Source of the DNA: an uncultured delta proteobacterium
GTDB taxonomy: Bacteria; Desulfobacterota; Binatia; Binatales; Binataceae
DNA: 64,000 bases
NCBI GenBank assembly: GCA_963711565.1
Contig: CAVQEQ010000001.1
Coordinates: 1,184,001 to 1,248,000 of the forward strand
Reading direction: 5' to 3'
Part shown: in pieces, positions 47,648-64,000 of the stretch
Position numbering within the stretch: the stretch's first letter is position 1
Layout of the letters: each line of letters starts with the position of its first letter
The notes under the pieces: generated by a model
What the model saw: only the letters and a program-made list of their open reading frames with translations
Databases searched by the model: none
Told to the model about the DNA's origin: nothing
Made by a program: the position numbers and the translations under genes

Positions 47648-48527
47648 AGTCTCAACCTCCCAGGGCTTCGAGTTCCGGTCGGCGTGCCGCGCACGCGGGC
47701 TTGCCGCCGGACACCGTCAGGGGCCGTCGGATGGATATGTCAAATTTCGATTTGTAACTGCGATTGATGGAAGAGAAACGGAATCGGGGAGAATGGGAAC
47801 TGCGTCTTATCGCCGTCGCGCCGCGCCAATAACAACGGCCGCGGCGCCCGGCGACGCCGACTTCAGGGCTGCGTGATCGAAAAGCGCCAAAACAAAACTG
47901 CGCCATGCGCACCGGCTCTTTTCATCGGACCATCAGCCCAGCTCGGCATCTCGCGATGCCCGCCCGCCTGCCCGCACCACAACACATTCCAAGCAGCGGC
48001 TCGATGGATAATGCGCGCGTCAACTAGGTCGTCAAATCCCCCGACTTGGCCGTTGCGATCCGCGCGACGTTTTCAGGCCACCAAGAGTAACAATCAGTGA
48101 GACGGCTTCTTAACTAGCGCGCGTACCGAGGTCGGGCAACATCGCGCGCGCGATTTAGAATCGACTTCAAACTTGACAACCGGTGGCCCAAGTGCCCTCT
48201 TTTGCGTGCGCTAGCGCTAAGCACACAGGGGCAAAATGAGATGCGCTAATGAGGCGCCATTGCGGGCGCGGCGCGCATCTCGTCATGTCGGCACTGAACA
48301 AATGTTCCAGTGCTTCAAGCCGGGCTGGGGTTTGTCGCGCATGCGACATATTGATCTTCAGTCTCGGAACGCGCGCGAACGTTGCTAACTCGCGCCGGGA
48401 TCGACCAACGCGCGAGAATTAAGAGAACAAATCCGTTGCCTCAACCGCGATGACCGCAAGGCTGGTTGTCGTCCAGTGAAAAATTTCAGAAACCTCGCGT
48501 GGGTTTCGTTCAGATGTACCGAATCTG

Positions 48528-50111
48528 TTAATGCACCGCTTCGGCCGGCAAGTTGCGCGTGTCGCGCTTGAGGAACAGAAACGTCGGCACGAGGATCAGC
48601 ATCAGCACAGTCAGGTCCCGGTAGATGTCGTTGAACGACAGCATCGCCGCCTGCCGCTGCACCATCCCGTAGAGCATCGCCATGCCGTGCTTGTGGCCCA
48701 TCGCGAATTCGTTGCCCATGTTGACGCCGCCCGGCATCTGCATATGCGGGAGCGTGAAGACCGTGATGTGCTCGACGAGGTAGCTCTGATTGATCTGCTG
48801 GCGATGGATCAGCAGCGTCGTCAGGTACGAGGTGCCGATCGCGGCGCCCAAGTTGCGCGTGACGGAATAGAGGCTCGCGGCGCGACCCATCTTGAACTTC
48901 TCCATCGAGCTGAGCGCGGCCGCCGACAAGCCGGGGAATATCAACCCGGTTCCCACTCCCTGGATCACGGTCGGCCACACGATTCGCTTCACATCCGAAT
49001 CGAGATTCAGCCCCGCCATCCGCCACATCGCGATCGCGACGAGGAGAAAGCCGATTCCGACCAGCGGCCGGATGTCACCGCCGCGCCGCGCGATAGCGCC
49101 AAGTATGATCATCGAAAACATCGTGCCGAAGCCGCGCGGGGCCATCACCAGTCCGGCCTTCGACGCCGTGTAACCGAGCGTCTCCTGCAGAAACACGGGA
49201 TTCAGGATCGCCGTGCCGTAGAGCGTGAAGGTCAGAAAAATTATCAGCACCACCGGCAGGGTGAAGTTCATGTTCTCGAGGATCGAGAGATCGACGACCG
49301 GGTCCTCGGTGTGCAGTTCGTGGTAGATGAGAATCCCGAGCGAGATGAGCGCGGCGGCCGTGCAATAAACCACCCACGGGCTGGTGAACCAGTCGGCGCG
49401 CTCGCCGCGATCGAGCACGATTTCGCCAAGGCCGAGCGTGACGAACAGGCACGCGATACCGATCAGGTTGACGCGCCCGCGGCGCAGGTTGCGCATGTAC
49501 GACGGGTCGTCGACGAAGCGATAGACCATGAACGCCGCCAGCGTCCCGATCGGCACGTTGATATAGAAATTCCAGCGCCAGCTCCACGCGTCGGTGATAT
49601 AGCCGCCGATCGTCGGGCCCATGATCGGCGCGACCATCATCCCGATTCCCCACACCGCCATCGCCATCGCCTGCTCGCGCGGCGGAAACGTCTCCATCAG
49701 GATCGCCTGCGACAGCGGCATCATTGCCGCGCCCGCCGCCCCCTGCATCAGGCGGAAAAACACGATCTGGTTGAGGGATTGCGCCACACCGCACAGCGCC
49801 GACGACACGATAAACATCGTGATCGACGCGACGAAGTAGCGCTTGCGGCCGAAGCGCTCGGCTATCCACCCGGTCATCGGGATCATGATTCCCGCCGCGA
49901 CCAGGTACGACGTAACGACCCACGCGATTTCGTCGACGCTCGCGGAGAAACTGCCCTGCATATGCGGCAGAGAGACGTTGACGATCGAGGAGTCGAGGAC
50001 CTCGAGCACGGTACCAAGCATCACGGAGAACGCGATCACCCACTTACGCGTCGAGGAGAACTCATGCACCTCGTGCGTAGTCTGGGTGATCGTTTTAGGC
50101 GCAACAGCCAT
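48528..50111 (-). CDS. DHA2 (EmrB/QacA) MFS efflux permease
   Basis: LDSSIVNVSLP, WVVTSY, RFGRKR, GPTIGG, WRWNFYINVP. Confidence 0.93.
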   Translation of the reverse strand: MAVAPKTITQTTHEVHEFSSTRKWVIAFSVMLGTVLEVLDSSIVNVSLPHMQGSFSASVDEIAWVVTSYLVAAGIMIPMTGWIAERFGRKRYFVASITMFIVSSALCGVAQSLNQIVFFRLMQGAAGAAMMPLSQAILMETFPPREQAMAMAVWGIGMMVAPIMGPTIGGYITDAWSWRWNFYINVPIGTLAAFMVYRFVDDPSYMRNLRRGRVNLIGIACLFVTLGLGEIVLDRGERADWFTSPWVVYCTAAALISLGILIYHELHTEDPVVDLSILENMNFTLPVVLIIFLTFTLYGTAILNPVFLQETLGYTASKAGLVMAPRGFGTMFSMIILGAIARRGGDIRPLVGIGFLLVAIAMWRMAGLNLDSDVKRIVWPTVIQGVGTGLIFPGLSAAALSSMEKFKMGRAASLYSVTRNLGAAIGTSYLTTLLIHRQQINQSYLVEHITVFTLPHMQMPGGVNMGNEFAMGHKHGMAMLYGMVQRQAAMLSFNDIYRDLTVLMLILVPTFLFLKRDTRNLPAEAVH

Positions 50112-50189
50112 GGAGGAAATCCTCGTTCAAGGTACAAAGGCGTCGTCGCCGATGCAAAAGACTTGAACCGTCGATGCAGTCATATCCCC

Positions 50190-50432
50190 TTCGCCTCCCC
50201 CTCAATGGGGGAGGCCGACGCTCGTCGTCGAGCGTCGGGTGGAGGACCAAAATTTTCCGGATTCCGGATCTTCGGCACATCAGACAATCGCGCCTCACGA
50301 ATGTCCTCCACCCTCGCCCTCCTCCAGCGAAGGAGGAGGGTATTCAAGACACTGGGTGCAGGGGTCACCCCCCCGCGACGGTGTCGATGCCGAAGGAGGT
50401 GTGGAACCCACCGCGGGTTCCACTACAATCAA
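50190..50432 (+). repeat. Composite repeat, copy 1 (cruciform element + GGGTGCAGGGG unit + TACAAT)
   Basis: Direct repeat of 51796-52006; cruciform part also present inverted at 56438-56593. Confidence 0.9.
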
Positions 50433-50439
50433 GTTCCTC

Positions 50440-51783
50440 ATGCCTCCCTCCGCCACGCTCCCTCCCGGGCCGAACCTCTTCGCGACTTTCGATTTCGTGC
50501 GCAATCCGTTCCGCTTCCTCGACGAATGCGCGCGCCGCTACGGCGATTGGTTCACCGTGCGCGTGCCGGGAGTCTCTCCGTTCGTCTTCACCAGCGACCC
50601 GGCCGCCGTCCGCGAGGTTTTCCTCGGCGACCCCGACACTCTTCATGCCGGCGACGCCAACCGTCCCCTCGGCGCGTTCATGGGCGAGAAGTCGTCGCTG
50701 TTCCTCGACGGTGCGGAGCATCTGAGCCAGCGCCGTTTGCTGCTGCCGGCATTTCATGGCGAGCGGATGAGTTCGTATGCCGATACGATGCGCACGGCGG
50801 CCGCCAATGCGATCGCGTCTTGGCCTCTTGGGCAGCGCTTCCCGATTCATCCGCAAATGCGCGCGATCACGTTCGAAACGATCATCCGCGCCGTATTCGG
50901 ATTCCAGAACGATGCGGCAGGCGCGGAGCTGCGCGCCCTGATGAAGCAATTGTTCGATCTGTATTCGAGCCGCCTCGGCACGCTGTTCTCTCTGCCCGCG
51001 ATGCAAATCGACGCCGGCCGATGGAGTCCGTGGGGGCGCGCCGTCAGGCTGACGCGTCAGATCGATTCGATCCTCTACGCGGAGTTCGCGCGGCGGCGAA
51101 AAGAAGGCGTCGAGGGACGCGCGGACATCCTCTCGATGCTGCTGGCGGCACGCTACGAAGACGGACAGCCGCTCCCCGACGCGGTCATTCGCGACGAGAT
51201 GTACACTCTCATGCTAGCGGGCCACGAAACTACGGCAGCCACGATGGCGTGGGTCATCAACCGCATGCTCACCAACCCCAACGTGATGGAACGCGCGCGC
51301 GCCGAAGTTCTTTCAGTATTGGGAGACCAACAGCTCGATTCGTCGCACGTCGGCAAACTGAAATTTGTCGAGGCGGTAATCAACGAGACGATGCGCCTGG
51401 ACCCGGTCGTGCCGAACATCGGCCGCGGCTTGACGAAGCCGATGACCATCGCTGGCCGCCAACTCCCGGCAGGCGTAACAATCGCCCCATGCATCTACCT
51501 GATACATCGCCGCCGCGAACTATGGCCAAACCCCGACCAATTCAGCCCCGACAGATTCCTCGAGACCCGCCCGAGCCCGTACACATTCCTCCCCTTCGGC
51601 GGCGGCCCAAGAAGATGCCTCGGCGCAGCGTTCGCAAGCTACCAGATGAAGATCGTAATCGTAGAAATCCTGTCGCGCGTAGATCTGAAGCCCGCGGAGG
51701 GCTACACCGCGCACGCCACCCGCCGCGGCATAGCATTCGCTCCGAGCGAGGGGATGCCGGTAATCGCTTCAAATCGTTCCTGA
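50440..51783 (+). CDS. Cytochrome P450
   Basis: LAGHETT, ETMR (ExxR), PDRF, PFGGGPRRCLG. Confidence 0.95.
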   Translation: MPPSATLPPGPNLFATFDFVRNPFRFLDECARRYGDWFTVRVPGVSPFVFTSDPAAVREVFLGDPDTLHAGDANRPLGAFMGEKSSLFLDGAEHLSQRRLLLPAFHGERMSSYADTMRTAAANAIASWPLGQRFPIHPQMRAITFETIIRAVFGFQNDAAGAELRALMKQLFDLYSSRLGTLFSLPAMQIDAGRWSPWGRAVRLTRQIDSILYAEFARRRKEGVEGRADILSMLLAARYEDGQPLPDAVIRDEMYTLMLAGHETTAATMAWVINRMLTNPNVMERARAEVLSVLGDQQLDSSHVGKLKFVEAVINETMRLDPVVPNIGRGLTKPMTIAGRQLPAGVTIAPCIYLIHRRRELWPNPDQFSPDRFLETRPSPYTFLPFGGGPRRCLGAAFASYQMKIVIVEILSRVDLKPAEGYTAHATRRGIAFAPSEGMPVIASNRS

Positions 51784-51795
51784 CAATGAGTTGTA

Positions 51796-52006
51796 GCCTC
51801 CTCCTACGTTGGAGGAGGCCGACGCTCGTCGTCGAGCGTCGGGTGGAGGACCAAATTTTCCGAATTCTGGGTCTTCGGCGCATACAAACAATCGCGCCGA
51901 AAATGGTCCTCCACCCTCGCCCTCCTCCGACGAAGGAGGAGGGTATTCAAGACACTGGGTGCAGGGGTCACCCCTGCAAACCCACCGCGGATTTCACTAC
52001 AATCAA
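51796..52006 (+). repeat. Composite repeat, copy 2
   Basis: Shares GGAGGCCGACGCTCGTCGTCGAGCGTCGGGTGGAGGACCAAA and GGAGGAGGGTATTCAAGACACTGGGTGCAGGGGTCACCCC with copy 1. Confidence 0.9.
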
Positions 52007-52011
52007 TCGCG

Positions 52012-52362
52012 ATGACCCCCGAAGACAAAAAGTTGATCACGATGATGACGCGGCTCTACGCCAAGACCAAAGCCGATCTCGTGGAATGGGAGCCGAGCGA
52101 GGACGCCAGTCTCTTCGCGGTGAAATTCTCGGATTACACGATCTCGATCCAGCACATGCTGGCGACCGGGAACAATCCGGAATGGTTCAATCTCGCCATC
52201 GCGAACAGCGACGGCGTGCCGATCCAGGAGATGGACAGCAAAACAGCCAGGGACAACGGCTTCGCCGACATGCCCGACCTCTTCTATCGCGCCCGCCGCC
52301 ACGCCGTGGACCTGAATGCCGCGCTGGACGACATACTCAAGGAACTTGATGAGTTGTCCTAG
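52012..52362 (+). CDS. Hypothetical protein
   Basis: 116-aa ORF with GC3-rich codon usage; ATG 8 nt after TACAAT. Confidence 0.7.
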   Translation: MTPEDKKLITMMTRLYAKTKADLVEWEPSEDASLFAVKFSDYTISIQHMLATGNNPEWFNLAIANSDGVPIQEMDSKTARDNGFADMPDLFYRARRHAVDLNAALDDILKELDELS

Positions 52363-52477
52363 CACAAATCGTTAGGCGCGAGCGGTCTCTCAATCCGGTC
52401 ATCGGCGGGCGCGCGGAACTTCTTAAGAGTCGCCACGCGTCCACGCGACAACCGCAGCGTGAGACTCAGCGCGCGGC

Positions 52478-53266
52478 TCAAAGATGCCATCGCGCCGTAT
52501 ACGCCTTGCAAATTTGCGCAATCATCGCGCGGTAGTCGGCGTCGATATCAATTCCTAAGCCGTTCACTCGCGCCAAGTACGGAGGATTTACGTTGTCGAT
52601 GAAGGCCGGCACTAGAAGCACAAAATCATAGCCGAGCACGTGCGTATGACCCGGCTTTCGTGTCGGAAGACCTCGAAACTTCTTCGCCGTAGTTTTTGGA
52701 TCATTTGGCCGATTGTCACTCACGGCTTCTGAAAATTCTTTCCAAAGCCGAGTATCTCCCGAGGATAACCGTGGAACGATTTTTCTTAGGAACCTTTTGG
52801 GATTTTTCTTGAACTTTGGTTTTATTCGATCCGGGACGTTCAGCACTTTTTGTGCGACACCGATCAGTACTGTAGCGACCAATACCGCCTCTTCTCTGGC
52901 GGAATGAACCGCCTTCATTACCTCGTTCAGGTCTGTATATCGGGTGGTACGATTGCGATGAGCGGTGACCACTGATTTGTTCTCGATGCAGACCCTGACC
53001 TGCTCGAGGTCAGGCGGCGAGTCCTTATCGTTTCCTCGCGCTCCGCCTATGAGAAGGTCCAATGCCCTCTCGTCCTTTCCGGGAATCGGTATGTTCAGCC
53101 AGTATCTTATAGCGCCACTTTCGAGGTCAGCGCGGAGAGGCTCGCAGGTGCCGAGGAGGTCCTTCAGAATGCCAAGACTAACCGTGTCCGAATGGTCCTC
53201 CTTACGGTGGTTATGAAATCCCCGTGTCTTTATGTCTTCAATGACTTGATCGAAAGGCGTCGTCAT
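52478..53266 (-). CDS. Putative PD-(D/E)xK type II restriction endonuclease
   Basis: LDLLIG...CIENKS; ATGA-coupled to a DNA methyltransferase; lower GC. Confidence 0.7.
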   Translation of the reverse strand: MTTPFDQVIEDIKTRGFHNHRKEDHSDTVSLGILKDLLGTCEPLRADLESGAIRYWLNIPIPGKDERALDLLIGGARGNDKDSPPDLEQVRVCIENKSVVTAHRNRTTRYTDLNEVMKAVHSAREEAVLVATVLIGVAQKVLNVPDRIKPKFKKNPKRFLRKIVPRLSSGDTRLWKEFSEAVSDNRPNDPKTTAKKFRGLPTRKPGHTHVLGYDFVLLVPAFIDNVNPPYLARVNGLGIDIDADYRAMIAQICKAYTARWHL

Positions 53267-54660
53267 CGTCCGAATTCGAGTTCCCTCGTTCGTGTATCCT
53301 CGTTTCGAGCCGCTCTCCGCTGAGTAGCGAATTTGGGAGGTACAGGAAGCTTCTTGAGAGTATGACTCTGCAACCTAAGAAACCCGTTGGCGACTCGTTG
53401 GCAGTGGGATGGTAGCCATTCCGCGACGAATCTGGAATTCAGATAGTCACACAGGTCTTCAATGACCGCCGAGTCTCTCGGCACGATGTAATAGACGGAA
53501 TGTCGGGGGACGAGCTTGCCTTTCTGATCGATCCAAAACTTGGGCCGTTCGGTGATGTCCTTGCAAAGGATCTTAGGGCGCAGTATATCGTTGAGCGGCG
53601 GAGTCTCATGGAACGCGTACCAAGGTTTTCGTCGAACGCACGTTCGTTGGATCAGCTGGGAACGGATAGCGGGTTGCGAAAGATAATCTTTGAGTTTTCC
53701 AAGCCTATCTTCAGAAATCAGAGTTCCATCGAGATCGTATGGAACCAGGATTAGCTTGCGCGAGTCCAGGTCATCGTTGAAATCCCCCATTTCGCGCCCC
53801 GCGATGGTCGGATAAGCAAATCGTCGTAGGTTCGCGGGAAGAGCATCTGCAACTCTGACGAAAACGTCATCTGCTCCGGTGGCAACGCCGCAGCTGATGC
53901 GCAGACAGACCTCTTCCAACGTGAGACCGGAGGAAATGCCGTTGTGGCCCATTATGAGGGGCAGCCACGAGGAACCGTCCACCGGCGGAACTATTTCGAC
54001 TTCAGAGCCGTCGCGCAAGATCGCTAGCGTGGAACTTGGCCGGCTCACTTCGTTCGAGATCGTCGTGATTGTTGGATAGGTGACCAGTTCCGCGAAAGTC
54101 GCTTCGTTTATCAACCGGATTTCTTCAACATTCTTGCGCGCGAGAATCCTTCTAAGGGCCTGCGCAGTCTCAACGTAAAGAAATTTCTCGGGAGTTATGA
54201 ACACCAAGCGACCGGCAGGATTCAAAAGCTTCAACGCTTGCTCGAAGAACAACAGATAGAGATCGAATCTTCCGGTCGCCGTTTCGAACCGTTCCCGGTA
54301 GCGCTGCTTTTCGCGCTCGGACAGCTCCGTAATCGGAACATACGGCGGATTCCCTACAATGAAATCGTATGTTCCCCGCTGGTCGTCCGTCAGGAAGTCC
54401 GAGCCCCTGATTTCAACCGATGCGCACTTCCCGAATCGCGCCCGTGCGATCTCTGCATGCTTTGGATTTGACTCTATTCCGACAATTCGAGGAACACTCG
54501 CCCGGTGTTTTGCGCACCAACGAACGATCCCATCGATAAACTCGCCGCGGCCGCAACCGGGATCCAGAACCAGCGCGTTCGATGTGGGGCGGTGGTTCAA
54601 AAAGAGACGGTCAACCATCAGGTCTACCGTCTCGCTTGGCGTTGGAACGAAACCCTTCAC
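53263..54660 (-). CDS. N6-adenine DNA methyltransferase (gamma class, TaqI/PaeR7I-like)
   Basis: VLDPGCGRGEF, VGNPPY, DLYLLFFE, GVATGAD, GFLRLQ. Confidence 0.9.
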   Translation of the reverse strand: MKGFVPTPSETVDLMVDRLFLNHRPTSNALVLDPGCGRGEFIDGIVRWCAKHRASVPRIVGIESNPKHAEIARARFGKCASVEIRGSDFLTDDQRGTYDFIVGNPPYVPITELSEREKQRYRERFETATGRFDLYLLFFEQALKLLNPAGRLVFITPEKFLYVETAQALRRILARKNVEEIRLINEATFAELVTYPTITTISNEVSRPSSTLAILRDGSEVEIVPPVDGSSWLPLIMGHNGISSGLTLEEVCLRISCGVATGADDVFVRVADALPANLRRFAYPTIAGREMGDFNDDLDSRKLILVPYDLDGTLISEDRLGKLKDYLSQPAIRSQLIQRTCVRRKPWYAFHETPPLNDILRPKILCKDITERPKFWIDQKGKLVPRHSVYYIVPRDSAVIEDLCDYLNSRFVAEWLPSHCQRVANGFLRLQSHTLKKLPVPPKFATQRRAARNEDTRTRELEFGR

Positions 54661-54804
54661 CCACCCTCCCGGCTAGCACCGCCTAGGCCAACTTCATTTA
54701 TGCTCGCTGCGAAGGCAGGGTGCAAATGTTCACGGTCTCGAGAGATTGACCTCAAGCGGTTATCATGTGCGCGGAACCCTTCTATCCTGTCGGGAGAGAA
54801 AACA

Positions 54805-55050
54805 TTGAACGAATTTATTTGCCCGTATTGCGGAGAGCCCGAGATCGCCGAATTGTTATGGTGCGTTGTACTCCTTCCGGTTGCGCGCTGGTCGGATGAG
54901 GGCAGAGCGGTAGACTACCGGGAACCTGAGGTCGATTTGGAGTCCGAATTGCCTTACGAATCAATCGATGAATCAGTGTCCGGGGACAGGCCGGTCTACG
55001 AATGCCGCAATTGCGCAAAGCAATTCCGTAAACCGAGCCGCGCAGACTAG
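54805..55050 (+). CDS. Small acidic zinc-ribbon protein
   Basis: GGGAG RBS, TTG start; CPYC...CRNC. Confidence 0.6.
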   Translation: MNEFICPYCGEPEIAELLWCVVLLPVARWSDEGRAVDYREPEVDLESELPYESIDESVSGDRPVYECRNCAKQFRKPSRAD

Positions 55051-55106
55051 CTCGGTTCGATCTTCAGACGAGCAATCGTATGTTATGCAGAATCCAAAGC
55101 GGAACC

Positions 55107-55257
55107 GGGATTCTTCACTACACCAACTTTCGCTCTGAATGACACAGGAAAAAGAACCTGAGAGCAAAAGGGCGTCCTCGCCATTTTGCGATTAGTACTG
55201 GGTGCAGGGGTCACCCCTGCCGAAGGAAGTGTGAAACCCACCGCGGGGTTTCACATT
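55107..55257. repeat. Degenerate GATTCTTC...CGCTCTGAATGACA REP half plus GGGTGCAGGGG-family copy
   Basis: 55197-55257 matches 43115-43172; related REP fragments at about 14970 and 40965. Confidence 0.75.
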
Positions 55258-55297
55258 CAATAAAGTGACTTACGTCTCCCCCAAGGCTCATCGCTCG

Positions 55298-55330
55298 TTG
55301 ACTCGTTTCTCGAACCTAACGTATGTTAGG
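55298..55330 (+). promoter_or_regulatory. Leaderless promoter with operator palindrome
   Basis: TTGACT-N18-TATGTT, 6 nt before ATG 55334; CCTAAC-GTAT-GTTAGG palindrome at 55315-55330. Confidence 0.6.
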
Positions 55331-55333
55331 CGC

Positions 55334-56413
55334 ATGCCTCATGAATCTCGACTCAACTTCTCCACCGACGAAATTCTCGCCAATGTTGATACTCGCGAGC
55401 CGCTTATCGTTAAGGGCGTCAAGTGTCATGGCGGGTTTGATGCGGACGGGCATTACCGGTCGCCGCGGACTGCGTTTCGCGTGCCCGCGATCAAGGCATG
55501 GCAGGAGCAGCATGTTGCTACTTCGGGCACTGCGCTGTTCGAGATTCCCGCCGATACCGTCTCGCCGCAGATGCCCAACGTCGCGCAGGTGAAATTTCTG
55601 CTCAAGTCGGGTGTGCGCGAGCCGTTCGTGCGATGGCTGTCCGAGATCGCGATCGTCGAGGGCTTCGGCGCGATGATTCGTGAGCTGCCGGTGCCTCCAC
55701 TCAACACATTCATCCGCGAGGACACTGCCGGCACCGCGCTGGCTCATCTCACGAGCGGGCTGTTCGAGGCGCATGCGCGCGACGAGGCGGGATGGAGCGA
55801 AGAGGGCGGGCATCGCCAGATGTGGGACGCGGCGCGCGACGCGGCGCTGTCCAATCCCGCAATCTCGCCGGAGATTTACGCCAACATCATGGCGCGGCGC
55901 GGCGGCCAGCCGGCCGCGATGTTCCCCGAGCTTGGCGAGCCGGTCGAGCGCTTGATTCGCTTCATGGCCAACGTGCTCGCGATCGAGGTCTTTGCCGCAT
56001 CGACGTTCGCGTGGGCCGAAGAGATTCTGTCAGACCCCGAAGTGTCCGACGCGCCCGACGACGCCGCCAACCTCGTGCGCTTCATCCGTTCCGACGAGGC
56101 GCCGCACGTCCAGTACCTGCGCACGGCGCTCTCCGAAATCCAGGCGCGCACGCTGCTCACGCTCGACGGCAAGCCCATCTCGGGCCGCAAGGTGGTGAAC
56201 GATCTGGCGGATCGCGGGGTTCGCGCGATGGTTCGTCAGCGGTTGAACGAGCGCCCGGGCATGGTGCGCGATCTGATCCGCAGAACGGCCAACGTCAAGG
56301 ACATCGACGCTTTGATGATGGAGTTTGACGCGCTCGGGACGCCGTGGACGCCGCCCGCGCGCTACGCGGACCTGGCGCCGGCGCCGAGCGCCGCCGCGCC
56401 CGTCGGCTACTGA
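55334..56413 (+). CDS. Ferritin-like (di-iron) four-helix protein
   Basis: IVEGFG, AHARDEAG...H, IEVFA, IRSDEAPH (DExxH). Confidence 0.7.
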   Translation: MPHESRLNFSTDEILANVDTREPLIVKGVKCHGGFDADGHYRSPRTAFRVPAIKAWQEQHVATSGTALFEIPADTVSPQMPNVAQVKFLLKSGVREPFVRWLSEIAIVEGFGAMIRELPVPPLNTFIREDTAGTALAHLTSGLFEAHARDEAGWSEEGGHRQMWDAARDAALSNPAISPEIYANIMARRGGQPAAMFPELGEPVERLIRFMANVLAIEVFAASTFAWAEEILSDPEVSDAPDDAANLVRFIRSDEAPHVQYLRTALSEIQARTLLTLDGKPISGRKVVNDLADRGVRAMVRQRLNERPGMVRDLIRRTANVKDIDALMMEFDALGTPWTPPARYADLAPAPSAAAPVGY

Positions 56414-56437: not shown

Positions 56438-56593
56438 ATTCCCTCCCCCGCTCGTTGGGGGAGGGTTAGGGTGGAGGACAACTGTGGGGCGCGATTGTCT
56501 CTTGCGCCGCACATTCTGAATCCGGAAAATTCGGTCCCTCACCCGCCGCTCTAAGACGAGCGGCGGCCTCCCCCCACGAATGGGGGAGGCGAA
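56438..56593 (-). repeat. Cruciform element, inverted third copy
   Basis: Reverse complement aligns to 50190-50342 with compensatory stem changes. Confidence 0.85.
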
Positions 56594-56671
56594 GAAGTAG
56601 GACAATCGAACTATCGTGGGGCCGATGGTAAGGTTTTTCTTTGGCTCGCGTGCCGGAGCCGGACCTATCGC

Positions 56672-62680: not shown

Positions 62681-62772
62681 GGAGAGGTGGCCGAGCCCGG
62701 TTTAAGGCGCACGCCTGGAACGCGTGTAGACTCGAAAGGGTCTCGGGGGTTCGAATCCCCCCCTCTCCGCCA
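62681..62772 (+). tRNA. tRNA-Ser (GGA)
   Basis: CACGC-CTGGAAC-GCGTG anticodon arm, long variable arm, GGTTCGAATCC, GCCA end. Confidence 0.96.
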
Positions 62773-62995
62773 CCCAGTCCGCGATTTTCCTGTTCTCCGC
62801 GGGAAAATCGAAAATGGTCTGCATGTTCGAGCACTTTCTTCCGCCAAAAGGGAACTGGAGAAGCTCAGAATCCACCGTTGTGGCGCCGCTCATAGTTGGA
62901 TCTAAATACCGCAGATGATCGGATCAGCCCTCCGGCCGTGTCAGCCGGACCGATCCTCTGTAGGTCATTAGCACCGCTTACCTTCCGATGTACAT

Positions 62996-63032
62996 AAAAG
63001 AACGGGCCAGCGCATTGAAGCACCAGCCCGCC
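62996..63032 (-). terminator. Terminator of the phage operon
   Basis: Minus strand CGGGCTGGTGC-TTCAAT-GCGCTGGCCCG-TTCTTTT. Confidence 0.6.
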
Positions 63033-63239
63033 GCCGACTGGAAAAGGGGGGCAAACCCAGCCAGCGCCCCCCTTCTACCAAATGTTCCGACGAAGCGTCC
63101 ACCGTTTCCCTAAGAGCTTCACTGAGAGTGGCATTCGCACTCGCAAGGCTCCGATGGATGGTGTATCAGGCTCAATGTCTGGGCCGATTCGCAGCTAGAT
63201 CGCAAAGAACGCCATAGGCGATATGCGCCGCCCTGATCC

Positions 63240-63584
63240 TCACTGGCGCGAAAGGACCAGGTACACGTAGCGCTCGGTGCATCCCAGCCGCGCGGCGATC
63301 TCACCGGCGGCGAGCTGCTCGCGGTTTAGTCTCACAATCTGCTCGTTCAGTGGCACCAATCGCTTAGGCAAGGTGACCGAACATTCTCCAAACTCCGCGC
63401 AGACCTTTCGCGCGATCTCAGCGTCACCGATCTTCTCGGCGAATCGCAAGAAGCCTGGCGAGTCAGGGGCTGGCGCGTAAAATCTCCGACCGCCGAATAT
63501 CTCTATCAGGCGGGCAGCGTCAACCTCGCCCAGTCGTTTGATCAGCGCGGCTCGGGAAACAGTACCATCACCATCGATCGACAT
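63240..63584 (-). CDS. Mor/C-like phage transcription activator
   Basis: LG..DAARL...FGGRRFYAP, FGECSVTLP, C-terminal HTH IAARLGCTERYVY. Confidence 0.75.
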   Translation of the reverse strand: MSIDGDGTVSRAALIKRLGEVDAARLIEIFGGRRFYAPAPDSPGFLRFAEKIGDAEIARKVCAEFGECSVTLPKRLVPLNEQIVRLNREQLAAGEIAARLGCTERYVYLVLSRQ

Positions 63585-63608
63585 TCCTTCCTCCTCCCCG
63601 GCCCCTCT

Positions 63609-64000
63609 CTATGATCTGAAGTTCAGCCCGCGCGCTTCGATCTCGGTGGTGAAACCGGCAGAGCGGGACAGCTTATGGCGCGCCGACTGGATCAAGTAAT
63701 TGCCGTCGTAGGTTCCCCAGCCATCGAGCGTCACGATCGCCCCGCCGGTCATCGTCACATTGCCGGGAATTTCCAGCGTCGCCGTCGCCTGGAGCATGTT
63801 GCGCCGATGCAGCTCCGCGGCTGCCTTCAGCGCGGCCTGCTGGCCGTTCTCGCAGCGGCGTATCAACTTGATGGTATCGCCGGTGGGAACGGCCGGTGAA
63901 GCCTCGGCGGTCGCGCTTATCAGCGCCTTGGTGTCGGGGTCGAAATAATTAATCTGCGCCGCCTTATAGATGAGGTGCGTTTTCGCCTTGAAGTTGAAAC
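63609..64000 (-). CDS. Phage late control D (baseplate hub) protein, C-terminal part
   Basis: CENGQQA..A.AEL, GNV.MTGG..VTLDGWG.YDGNYLIQSARHKLSRSAGFTTEIE. Confidence 0.8.
   Translation of the reverse strand, partial: FNFKAKTHLIYKAAQINYFDPDTKALISATAEASPAVPTGDTIKLIRRCENGQQAALKAAAELHRRNMLQATATLEIPGNVTMTGGAIVTLDGWGTYDGNYLIQSARHKLSRSAGFTTEIEARGLNFRS

Follow-up and report, generated by a model that had tools for sequence, protein, structure and literature searches.

Several kinds of small dispersed repeat are known to carry promoters. The Correia elements of Neisseria (CREE/NEMIS) and other MITEs (miniature transposable elements with inverted repeats) bear σ-70-like promoters (PMC10969869; PMC3184786), the REP2 repeats of Neisseria and the IR-A/IR-B repeats of Borrelia place one directly 5′ of unrelated genes (PMC3184786), and latent promoters lie at the ends of IS3 insertion sequences (Fuqua and Wagner, 2025, PMC12095673). 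Triplex repeats of the BoxC, PIT and TM-ECO types have also been described (Holder et al., 2015, PMC4666352), as have hotspots without an integrase whose cargo is renewed through recombination in the conserved flanking regions (Oliveira et al., 2017, PMC5635113) and core defence hotspots (Johnson et al., 2023, PMC10250203). Here we compare with these systems a locus in a 64,000-nt stretch of DNA from an uncultured member of the Binataceae (hereafter the window; contig CAVQEQ010000001.1, positions 1,184,001 to 1,248,000, assembly GCA_963711565.1), in which two composite repeats bracket a cytochrome P450 gene next to a slot of variable gene content. In part of the genus, the tail of one component repeat, family B, stands in place of the predicted native −10 box of the housekeeping genes metG and mnmE, and the outward end of B probably serves as a promoter.

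Repeat units of the P450 locus

An earlier note on this DNA described a composite repeat directly bracketing the P450 gene and proposed an integrase-free gene-capture site, with the repeat acting both as recombination substrate and as promoter for near-leaderless mRNA. The bracketing is real: long unit 1 (50189-50439) and long unit 2 (51794-52011) are identical at 195 of 215 aligned bases, with 39 gap columns, and CACTACAATCAA is found in both alike. Each unit is a family A copy joined to a family B copy (Table 1), and both halves belong to dispersed, genome-wide families, a feature that the note missed together with a further family A copy beyond the block. TACAAT lies, as described, 10 nt upstream of the P450 ATG in unit 1 and 8 nt upstream of the ATG at 52012 in unit 2, with no Shine-Dalgarno sequence between. 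A third unit does close the block, although it is a B copy with the tail TTCAAT rather than TACAAT. The duplication is not an assembly artefact, since each A arm is continuous with its own flank in contigs from an independent study and A is present on both sides of the P450 gene in three other genomes.

Family B is a dispersed, probably non-autonomous hairpin repeat of ~75 nt. Its core occurs 149-156 times in the genome of the window (G000), depending on the pattern used, and all 156 cores of the larger set lie outside called genes. Matches number 40-185 in each of 14 of the 18 genus relatives, and none were found in 12 genomes of other families. The second hairpin of B sets a −35-like box, (G/A)TGAAA, 17-18 nt 5′ of the tail (17 nt in the CACTACAAT variant), and the box scores 4/6 or better as a −35 hexamer in 75 of 102 copies. 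The typical tail is one step from the −10 box TAnnAT: TTCAAT is commonest (27 of 108 copies), and TACAAT accounts for 10.

No terminal inverted repeats bound single B units, and back-to-back B pairs exist. The search for an autonomous partner returned no TnpB; two Y1 transposases and the GIY-YIG genes have repeats of other kinds at their flanks, the genes enclosed by inverted B pairs are ordinary ones, and two viral-contig matches have no mobility gene beside B. Assignment to the REP/RAYT group was rejected, because B is ~75 nt long, against 20-40 nt for REP palindromes, and lacks a GTAG or CGTC tag, and the Y1 genes carry different palindromes. B was also noted in two Mu-like viral contigs (L038, L039).

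Native and B-derived −10 boxes

The genes metG and mnmE (both named from sequence) were compared in 35 of 43 genomes and at 40 of 45 loci, respectively. A native TAnnnT lies ~10 nt 5′ of the metG ATG in 23 of the 35 genomes. In the other 12 the B tail stands in its place, always as TAnnAT and in 11 cases at exactly 7 nt, and in five more genomes a B core lies just 5′ of the native box. The B-tail state requires seven changes on the tree, a single clade being rejected (approximately unbiased test, p 0.0005), and the gene upstream of metG is divergent in 10 of the 12. In G000, metG is the first gene of its operon, and the only element before it is a decayed B hairpin, whose TAGAAT lies 7 nt 5′ of the ATG (C1:463040-463099; L195, L196).

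The mnmE comparison was run as a prediction test of this pattern. A fused B tail was found at 33 of the 40 loci, including G000 (C1:1104920-1104976; L260). At 28 loci the tail reads TA(C/T)AAT, five times as a perfect TATAAT, and no native box is present; a single locus has both. The four loci with a TA-less tail all keep a native-type TACC(C/T)T 7-9 nt 5′ of the ATG, six have a native box and no fused B (one of them judged by eye), and one is operonic. Where the native box is absent, tail hexamers at the two genes vary (TACAAT, TATAAT, TAGAAT, TAAGAT, TACTAT) and yet retain the TA and the final T. Native and B-derived −10 boxes are thus arranged in an either-or pattern.

Within G000, seven tails have a coding ATG no more than 30 nt away, those of metG and mnmE among them, and TAnnnT is carried by 7 of 7 vs 8 of 56 for tails facing gene ends (p 1e-5; 5 of 5 and p 2e-4 once the window copies are removed), the pattern having been fixed after several of these cases were known. 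Three further G000 genes start 9-12 nt past a B tail of TAAGAT, TAGAAT or TACAAT (C3:870468, C3:1113692 and C1:923381); from their motifs we take these to be CoA-transferase-like, metallophosphoesterase-like and peptidase-like, respectively.

Leaders of the P450 gene fall into comparable states. Two genomes without B have TAGTAT 9 nt 5′ of the ATG, ten loci retain a native GTAGTAACTC-type leader, and at twelve the B tail is fused to the ATG, with TACAAT in 10 of the 12; where B lies 5′ of a retained native leader, TACAAT occurs in just 1 of 7 (the P450 of G048, 62% identical and in another context, was excluded from the leader count). For the 116-aa open reading frame (ORF) behind unit 2, TACAAT lies 7-8 nt 5′ of the ATG in all seven genomes that have the ORF, and the hairpin with TACAAT is kept in all seven while the B core has decayed in several.

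These comparisons suggest that the outward end of B is probably a σ-70-type promoter, and that the two TACAAT copies of the window would be cases of recurrent replacement of native promoters. We propose that B, whose dispersal is observed, inserts into spacers. Its second hairpin brings (G/A)TGAAA at promoter-like spacing to a tail one step from a −10 box, as the copies show. A deletion then fuses the tail to the start codon and removes the native −10, a step that intermediates in relatives document, and selection would keep the TAnnnT positions, as the either-or pattern implies. The mRNA predicted to start from the resulting tail has a short leader or none. The promoter role put forward in the earlier note therefore gains comparative support from metG and mnmE, though the −10 box on which it was built is a minority variant of the tail.

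A number of observations weigh against this reading. The consensus tail, TTCAAT, lacks the box, and the TAnnnT pattern of the G000 test was fixed late, with gene calls from a simple in-house model that misses low-GC genes. The mnmE tails lie 9-21 nt from the ATG, so many mnmE mRNAs would not be leaderless, and leaderless-type spacing forms just a modest peak genome-wide. Genus-wide, an ATG lies within 11 nt of TACAAT in 6 of 48 cases vs 0 of 28 controls (p 0.08), and in 19 of 49 locus clusters it is a gene end that the TACAAT variant points towards. Promoter regions can be moved by recombination, so that the seven metG changes need not be seven insertions. The fused P450 state is mostly one clade, and its counts are therefore not independent; the fused leaders of G003 and G035 lack a well-placed TAnnnT. 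In the window itself, the −35 boxes of both copies match at just three of six positions, and a consensus promoter scanner lists no promoter at the B tails. 

In G000, 95 of the 156 cores face an opposite-strand gene at a median of ~70-75 nt, just past stop codons. Such positions, and the many TACAAT copies at gene ends, would be expected if B were a neutral or 3′-untranslated-region-acting REP-like repeat, with TACAAT a subfamily variant and the genes using other promoters. We regard this as unlikely: it leaves unexplained why metG and mnmE lack the native −10 solely where the tail carries TA, in a variety of hexamers, and why decay of the core spares the tail and second hairpin.

If B is a promoter-carrying repeat, its interest lies less in the principle, which is already known, than in the series available here: 35-40 genomes show the native promoter, the repeat upstream of it and the fused repeat with the native box gone, at housekeeping genes and several times independently. 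This offers a natural experiment on the creation of promoters by mobile DNA and on how a repeat may become essential, with exact start sites predicted. A bolder version, which we offer tentatively and think rather doubtful, would have B as a selfish repeat entrenched by promoter takeover: landing directly 5′ of genes that lack a Shine-Dalgarno sequence, it would delete the native promoter there and make itself indispensable as the sole promoter of housekeeping genes such as metG and mnmE, rewiring core transcription of the genus onto a portable, co-regulatable element, and its paired copies would move defence modules from locus to locus.

The cassette-like layout and the variable slot

Family A (~155 nt) is present at 29 loci of the genome. 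Its arms flank three DUF559 endonuclease genes of the same genome (C4:1017943, C1:1088566 and C1:1051235), one half on either side of an intact or near-intact gene, so that A is a nuclease-less derivative of a DUF559 element. The sole Rfam match, to whalefall-1, is sub-threshold (29.7 vs 37 bits). A fails the strict BoxC/TM-ECO pattern, CCCTCNCCC N3-6 GGGNGAGGG N3 GGGNGAGGG, having the same architecture with four substitutions. Further DUF559 and GIY-YIG genes in G000 have flanking inverted repeat families of their own (C1:274477, C4:441801, C3:1254253, C3:393423, C3:421353, C1:78255 and C1:417602), nuclease-less copies of which are also scattered through spacers.

Table 1. Annotated features of the P450-to-ferritin-like interval and its borders (window positions).
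Feature	Positions	Strand	Remarks
MFS efflux-type transporter, conserved left neighbour	48528..50111	-	Pfam MFS_1
Family A copy 1, nuclease-less DUF559-element derivative, two inverted BoxC/triplex-type arms	50189..50343	+	Arms match DUF559 gene flanks
Family B copy 1, with a 29-nt insert between core hairpin and second hairpin; P450 ATG joined to its tail	50351..50439	+	
Predicted −10 box TACAAT; −35-like GTGGAA (3/6) 17 nt upstream	50424..50429	+	In place of the native leader that 12 other loci have
Cytochrome P450, 447 aa	50440..51783	+	Pfam p450, E 2e-77; inherited with locus
Family A copy 2	51794..51946	+	Also 5′ of the 116-aa ORF in G035, G049, G056
Family B copy 2, internal deletion	51954..52011	+	Predicted −10 TACAAT at 51998-52003
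116-aa ORF; 3′ end is left edge of variable slot	52012..52362	+	Swap joint at 52346
Putative type II restriction endonuclease, 262 aa	52478..53266	-	GC 51.5%; role suggested by pairing with methyltransferase
Type II DNA methyltransferase	53263..54660	-	GC 54%; Pfam Eco57I, TaqI_C; PADLOC MTase_II
81-aa ORF, two CxxC pairs	54805..55050	+	In 9/47 genomes, beside several different defence cargoes
Other repeat modules: one half of a repeat of GIY-YIG type, and module D	55099..55193	+	Module D precedes ~1/3 of B cores
Family B copy 3	55197..55268	+	Consensus tail TTCAAT; position also occupied where the RM genes are absent (G003, G009, G056, G057)
Native predicted promoter of next gene, TTGACT-18-TATGTT, palindromic operator-like site	55298..55330	+	Hotspot right limit; conserved in all 31 distinct promoter sequences listed
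Conserved right neighbour ("ferritin-like")	55334..56413	+	18/18 genus relatives; no family match
Family A copy without B, beyond the block	56438..56595	-	

The P450 gene is vertically inherited with its locus. It occurs in 23 of 47 genus genomes, adjoins the MFS gene at 20 of 24 loci, and is 81-86% identical to the window copy, like its neighbours, with a tree that splits broadly as theirs does. This bears on the proposal that the locus is a dedicated integrase-free capture array whose A+B unit is both recombination site and promoter, which we consider very improbable. Some features of the locus do look that way. The A+B composite is found at just two of the 29 A loci in G000, both here, and brackets the P450 gene also in G003 and G049. 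The two copies of G003 are 0.84 alike vs 0.60-0.66 to those of G000, a sign of exchange between copies. In G017 and G046 no P450 gene stands between the B copies, a partial tandem duplication is seen in G037 (B, P450, B and a 52-nt P450 fragment), and in G006 and G057 inverted B copies enclose the restriction-modification (RM) pair at other loci.

Against a capture array stand the inheritance of the P450 gene and the wide occurrence of the repeats. No A or B lies within 500 nt downstream at 13 of the 24 P450 loci, and 9 of 15 cargo intervals from the slot described below have no A/B motif, so that nothing like one site per cassette is seen, with B in ~150 copies. Among 22 same-strand B pairs within 4 kb in the genome are direct arrays that bracket housekeeping genes alike (B-parB-B-parA-B-rsmG-B-mnmG and B-truB-B, names from sequence); the four copies that separate mnmG, rsmG, parA and parB lie at C1:1106592-1109937. 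A strain-level swap of the cargo starts inside the 116-aa ORF rather than at a repeat unit, the RM genes are oriented away from the supposed promoter, and the G057 RM copy runs ~100 nt past B, carrying the next gene's promoter. That G057 locus (L080, C6) has a second ferritin-like-gene promoter and operator behind RM-ORF81-B without the cognate gene, and its left flank resembles the hotspot spacer of G017; the block seems to have moved from the hotspot.

Integrons likewise have an array-like look and variable accessory genes. The present locus differs in having no IntI or attI (the nine PF00589 matches of the genome all lie outside the window), repeats that are genome-wide rather than cassette-bound, and cargo on both strands with its own promoters. 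An attC candidate, GTTAGGC after the 116-aa ORF, was dropped since it is not conserved in relatives. Eight sequencing runs gave no P450-excision joint, circle or empty site at the repeat; these were contigs, which drop rare forms, and so cannot show that such joints are absent.

A cassette-capture system is therefore not supported, and the recombination role given to the repeat in the earlier note mostly falls away. The cassette look would be a separate matter from the promoter role of B: several repeat families pile up in these spacers, beside a defence slot, and may occasionally act as ordinary substrates for deletion and duplication. Some rearrangements end in or near B, and the repeat-associated changes seen here are what any dispersed repeat can do.

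The slot itself lies between the 116-aa ORF and the promoter of a conserved gene that we call ferritin-like, presuming so from its motifs. As the earlier note had anticipated, gene content between the MFS and ferritin-like genes varies across relatives: the 15 intervals examined hold highly variable cargo of 0-5 kb, and eight contain defence-type matches (GmrSD/NsnA, PDC-S19, S33, S41, S54, M36A, DndB and type II methyltransferase), with a truncated copy in a ninth. Other cargoes include Sel1, GNAT and sensor kinase genes. A near-identical strain from an independent metagenome carries a different 2.2-kb cargo with joints at 52346 (the end of the 116-aa ORF) and ~55100, and another run holds both slot alleles. 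Different defence genes thus lie between the same conserved neighbours, and the slot is an integrase-free defence hotspot, probably refilled by homologous recombination via its conserved flanks. Recombination at these flanks, selection and promoter activity are what we infer from the comparisons. The locus marks a small hotspot whose cargoes provide a list of candidate anti-phage genes from a soil genus without cultured members.

In the window the cargo consists of two minus-strand genes, a probable RM pair, with a GC content of 51-54% vs 61% genome-wide (4.84-Mb genome). The P450 and methyltransferase assignments stand. The 262-aa partner has no family match, no sequence match in the PDB and no Foldseek match at E ≤ 0.001; it shows a weak Foldseek fold match to BbvCI (E 0.015), and D70 and E95-N-K97 are invariant. 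The small CxxC ORF (54805-55050) follows RM or DndB-like genes here and at least at one other locus (L048-L055), and is possibly an accessory defence or regulatory gene. The 116-aa ORF has 108 homologues and no Pfam, PADLOC or NCBIfam match. One of the homologues is named Candidatus Binatus, by which the genus of the window is judged to be Candidatus Binatus.

A 16-nt palindrome (55315-55330) covers the −10 box of the ferritin-like gene, occurs once in the genome and is conserved across the genus. That the slot is filled by site-specific, Xer-type integration at this palindrome, which has the dif-like layout TAA-6 nt-TTA and lies at the edge of all cargoes, deserves next to no credence and was rejected, given that the genome has its proper dif-like site at another place (C4:1326376, near the GC-skew maximum) and that the palindrome shares bases with the −10 of a conserved promoter, is perfect in some genomes and is not duplicated around the cargo. 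In G012 and G001 (L020, L015), the right border of the slot, ahead of the ferritin-like promoter, carries another inverted-repeat element family. Elsewhere in the window, conservation of an 850-nt spacer (47650-48500) 5′ of a 232-aa ORF extends to distant members of the genus, and the spacer has no Rfam match; positions 62700-64000, at the end of the window, hold a tRNA-like sequence and, after it, Mu-like phage genes.

Relation to known repeats and hotspots

The slot resembles integrase-free and core defence hotspots (Oliveira et al., 2017; Johnson et al., 2023) in that conserved genes enclose a cargo that varies, is rich in defence genes and comes with no integrase; it is unlike them in its small size (0-5 kb) and in belonging to a soil genus that is uncultured. 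Family A shares with BoxC a 9-nt stem, a 3-6-nt loop, a 9-nt purine arm, 3 nt and a third purine tract, together with intergenic placement, inverted pairs and variable surroundings (PMC4666352); it differs by four mismatches to the Escherichia coli consensus, an extra hairpin in the left arm and its tie to DUF559 genes.

Family B has what is expected of a promoter repeat, being multicopy, intergenic and non-coding, with predicted outward −35 and −10 boxes at the right spacing 5′ of unrelated genes. In the literature on DUF559 repeats, Binatus/Binatota repeats, repeat-borne or leaderless promoters and natural promoter replacement (mostly non-subscription journals), we found neither an account of B nor one of natural promoter takeover repeated in this way. 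Like the Correia elements as characterised in the cited text, B is a small, non-autonomous, intergenic multicopy repeat that would supply the promoter of the next gene; unlike them, it has no terminal inverted repeats that we could find, its −10 is latent in most copies, and it appears repeatedly to replace the native promoters of housekeeping genes, often feeding a start codon without a Shine-Dalgarno sequence. With REP2 and IR-A/IR-B it shares the lack of terminal inverted repeats, two internal stem-loops and a promoter, predicted in B, directly 5′ of unrelated genes. REP2 is described as carrying promoter, ribosome-binding site and ATG in every copy, whereas B has neither of the latter two and most of its copies lie at gene ends. 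The IS3-end case offers the nearest parallel for how a tail may be activated, since there too a small change makes a −10 box downstream of an existing −35 box in mobile DNA; that case comes from laboratory mutagenesis, whereas for B the change would be natural, repeated and fixed at chromosomal genes. B belongs to none of these families, but judged from its sequence comparisons it appears to work as Correia elements, REP2 and latent insertion-sequence-end promoters do.

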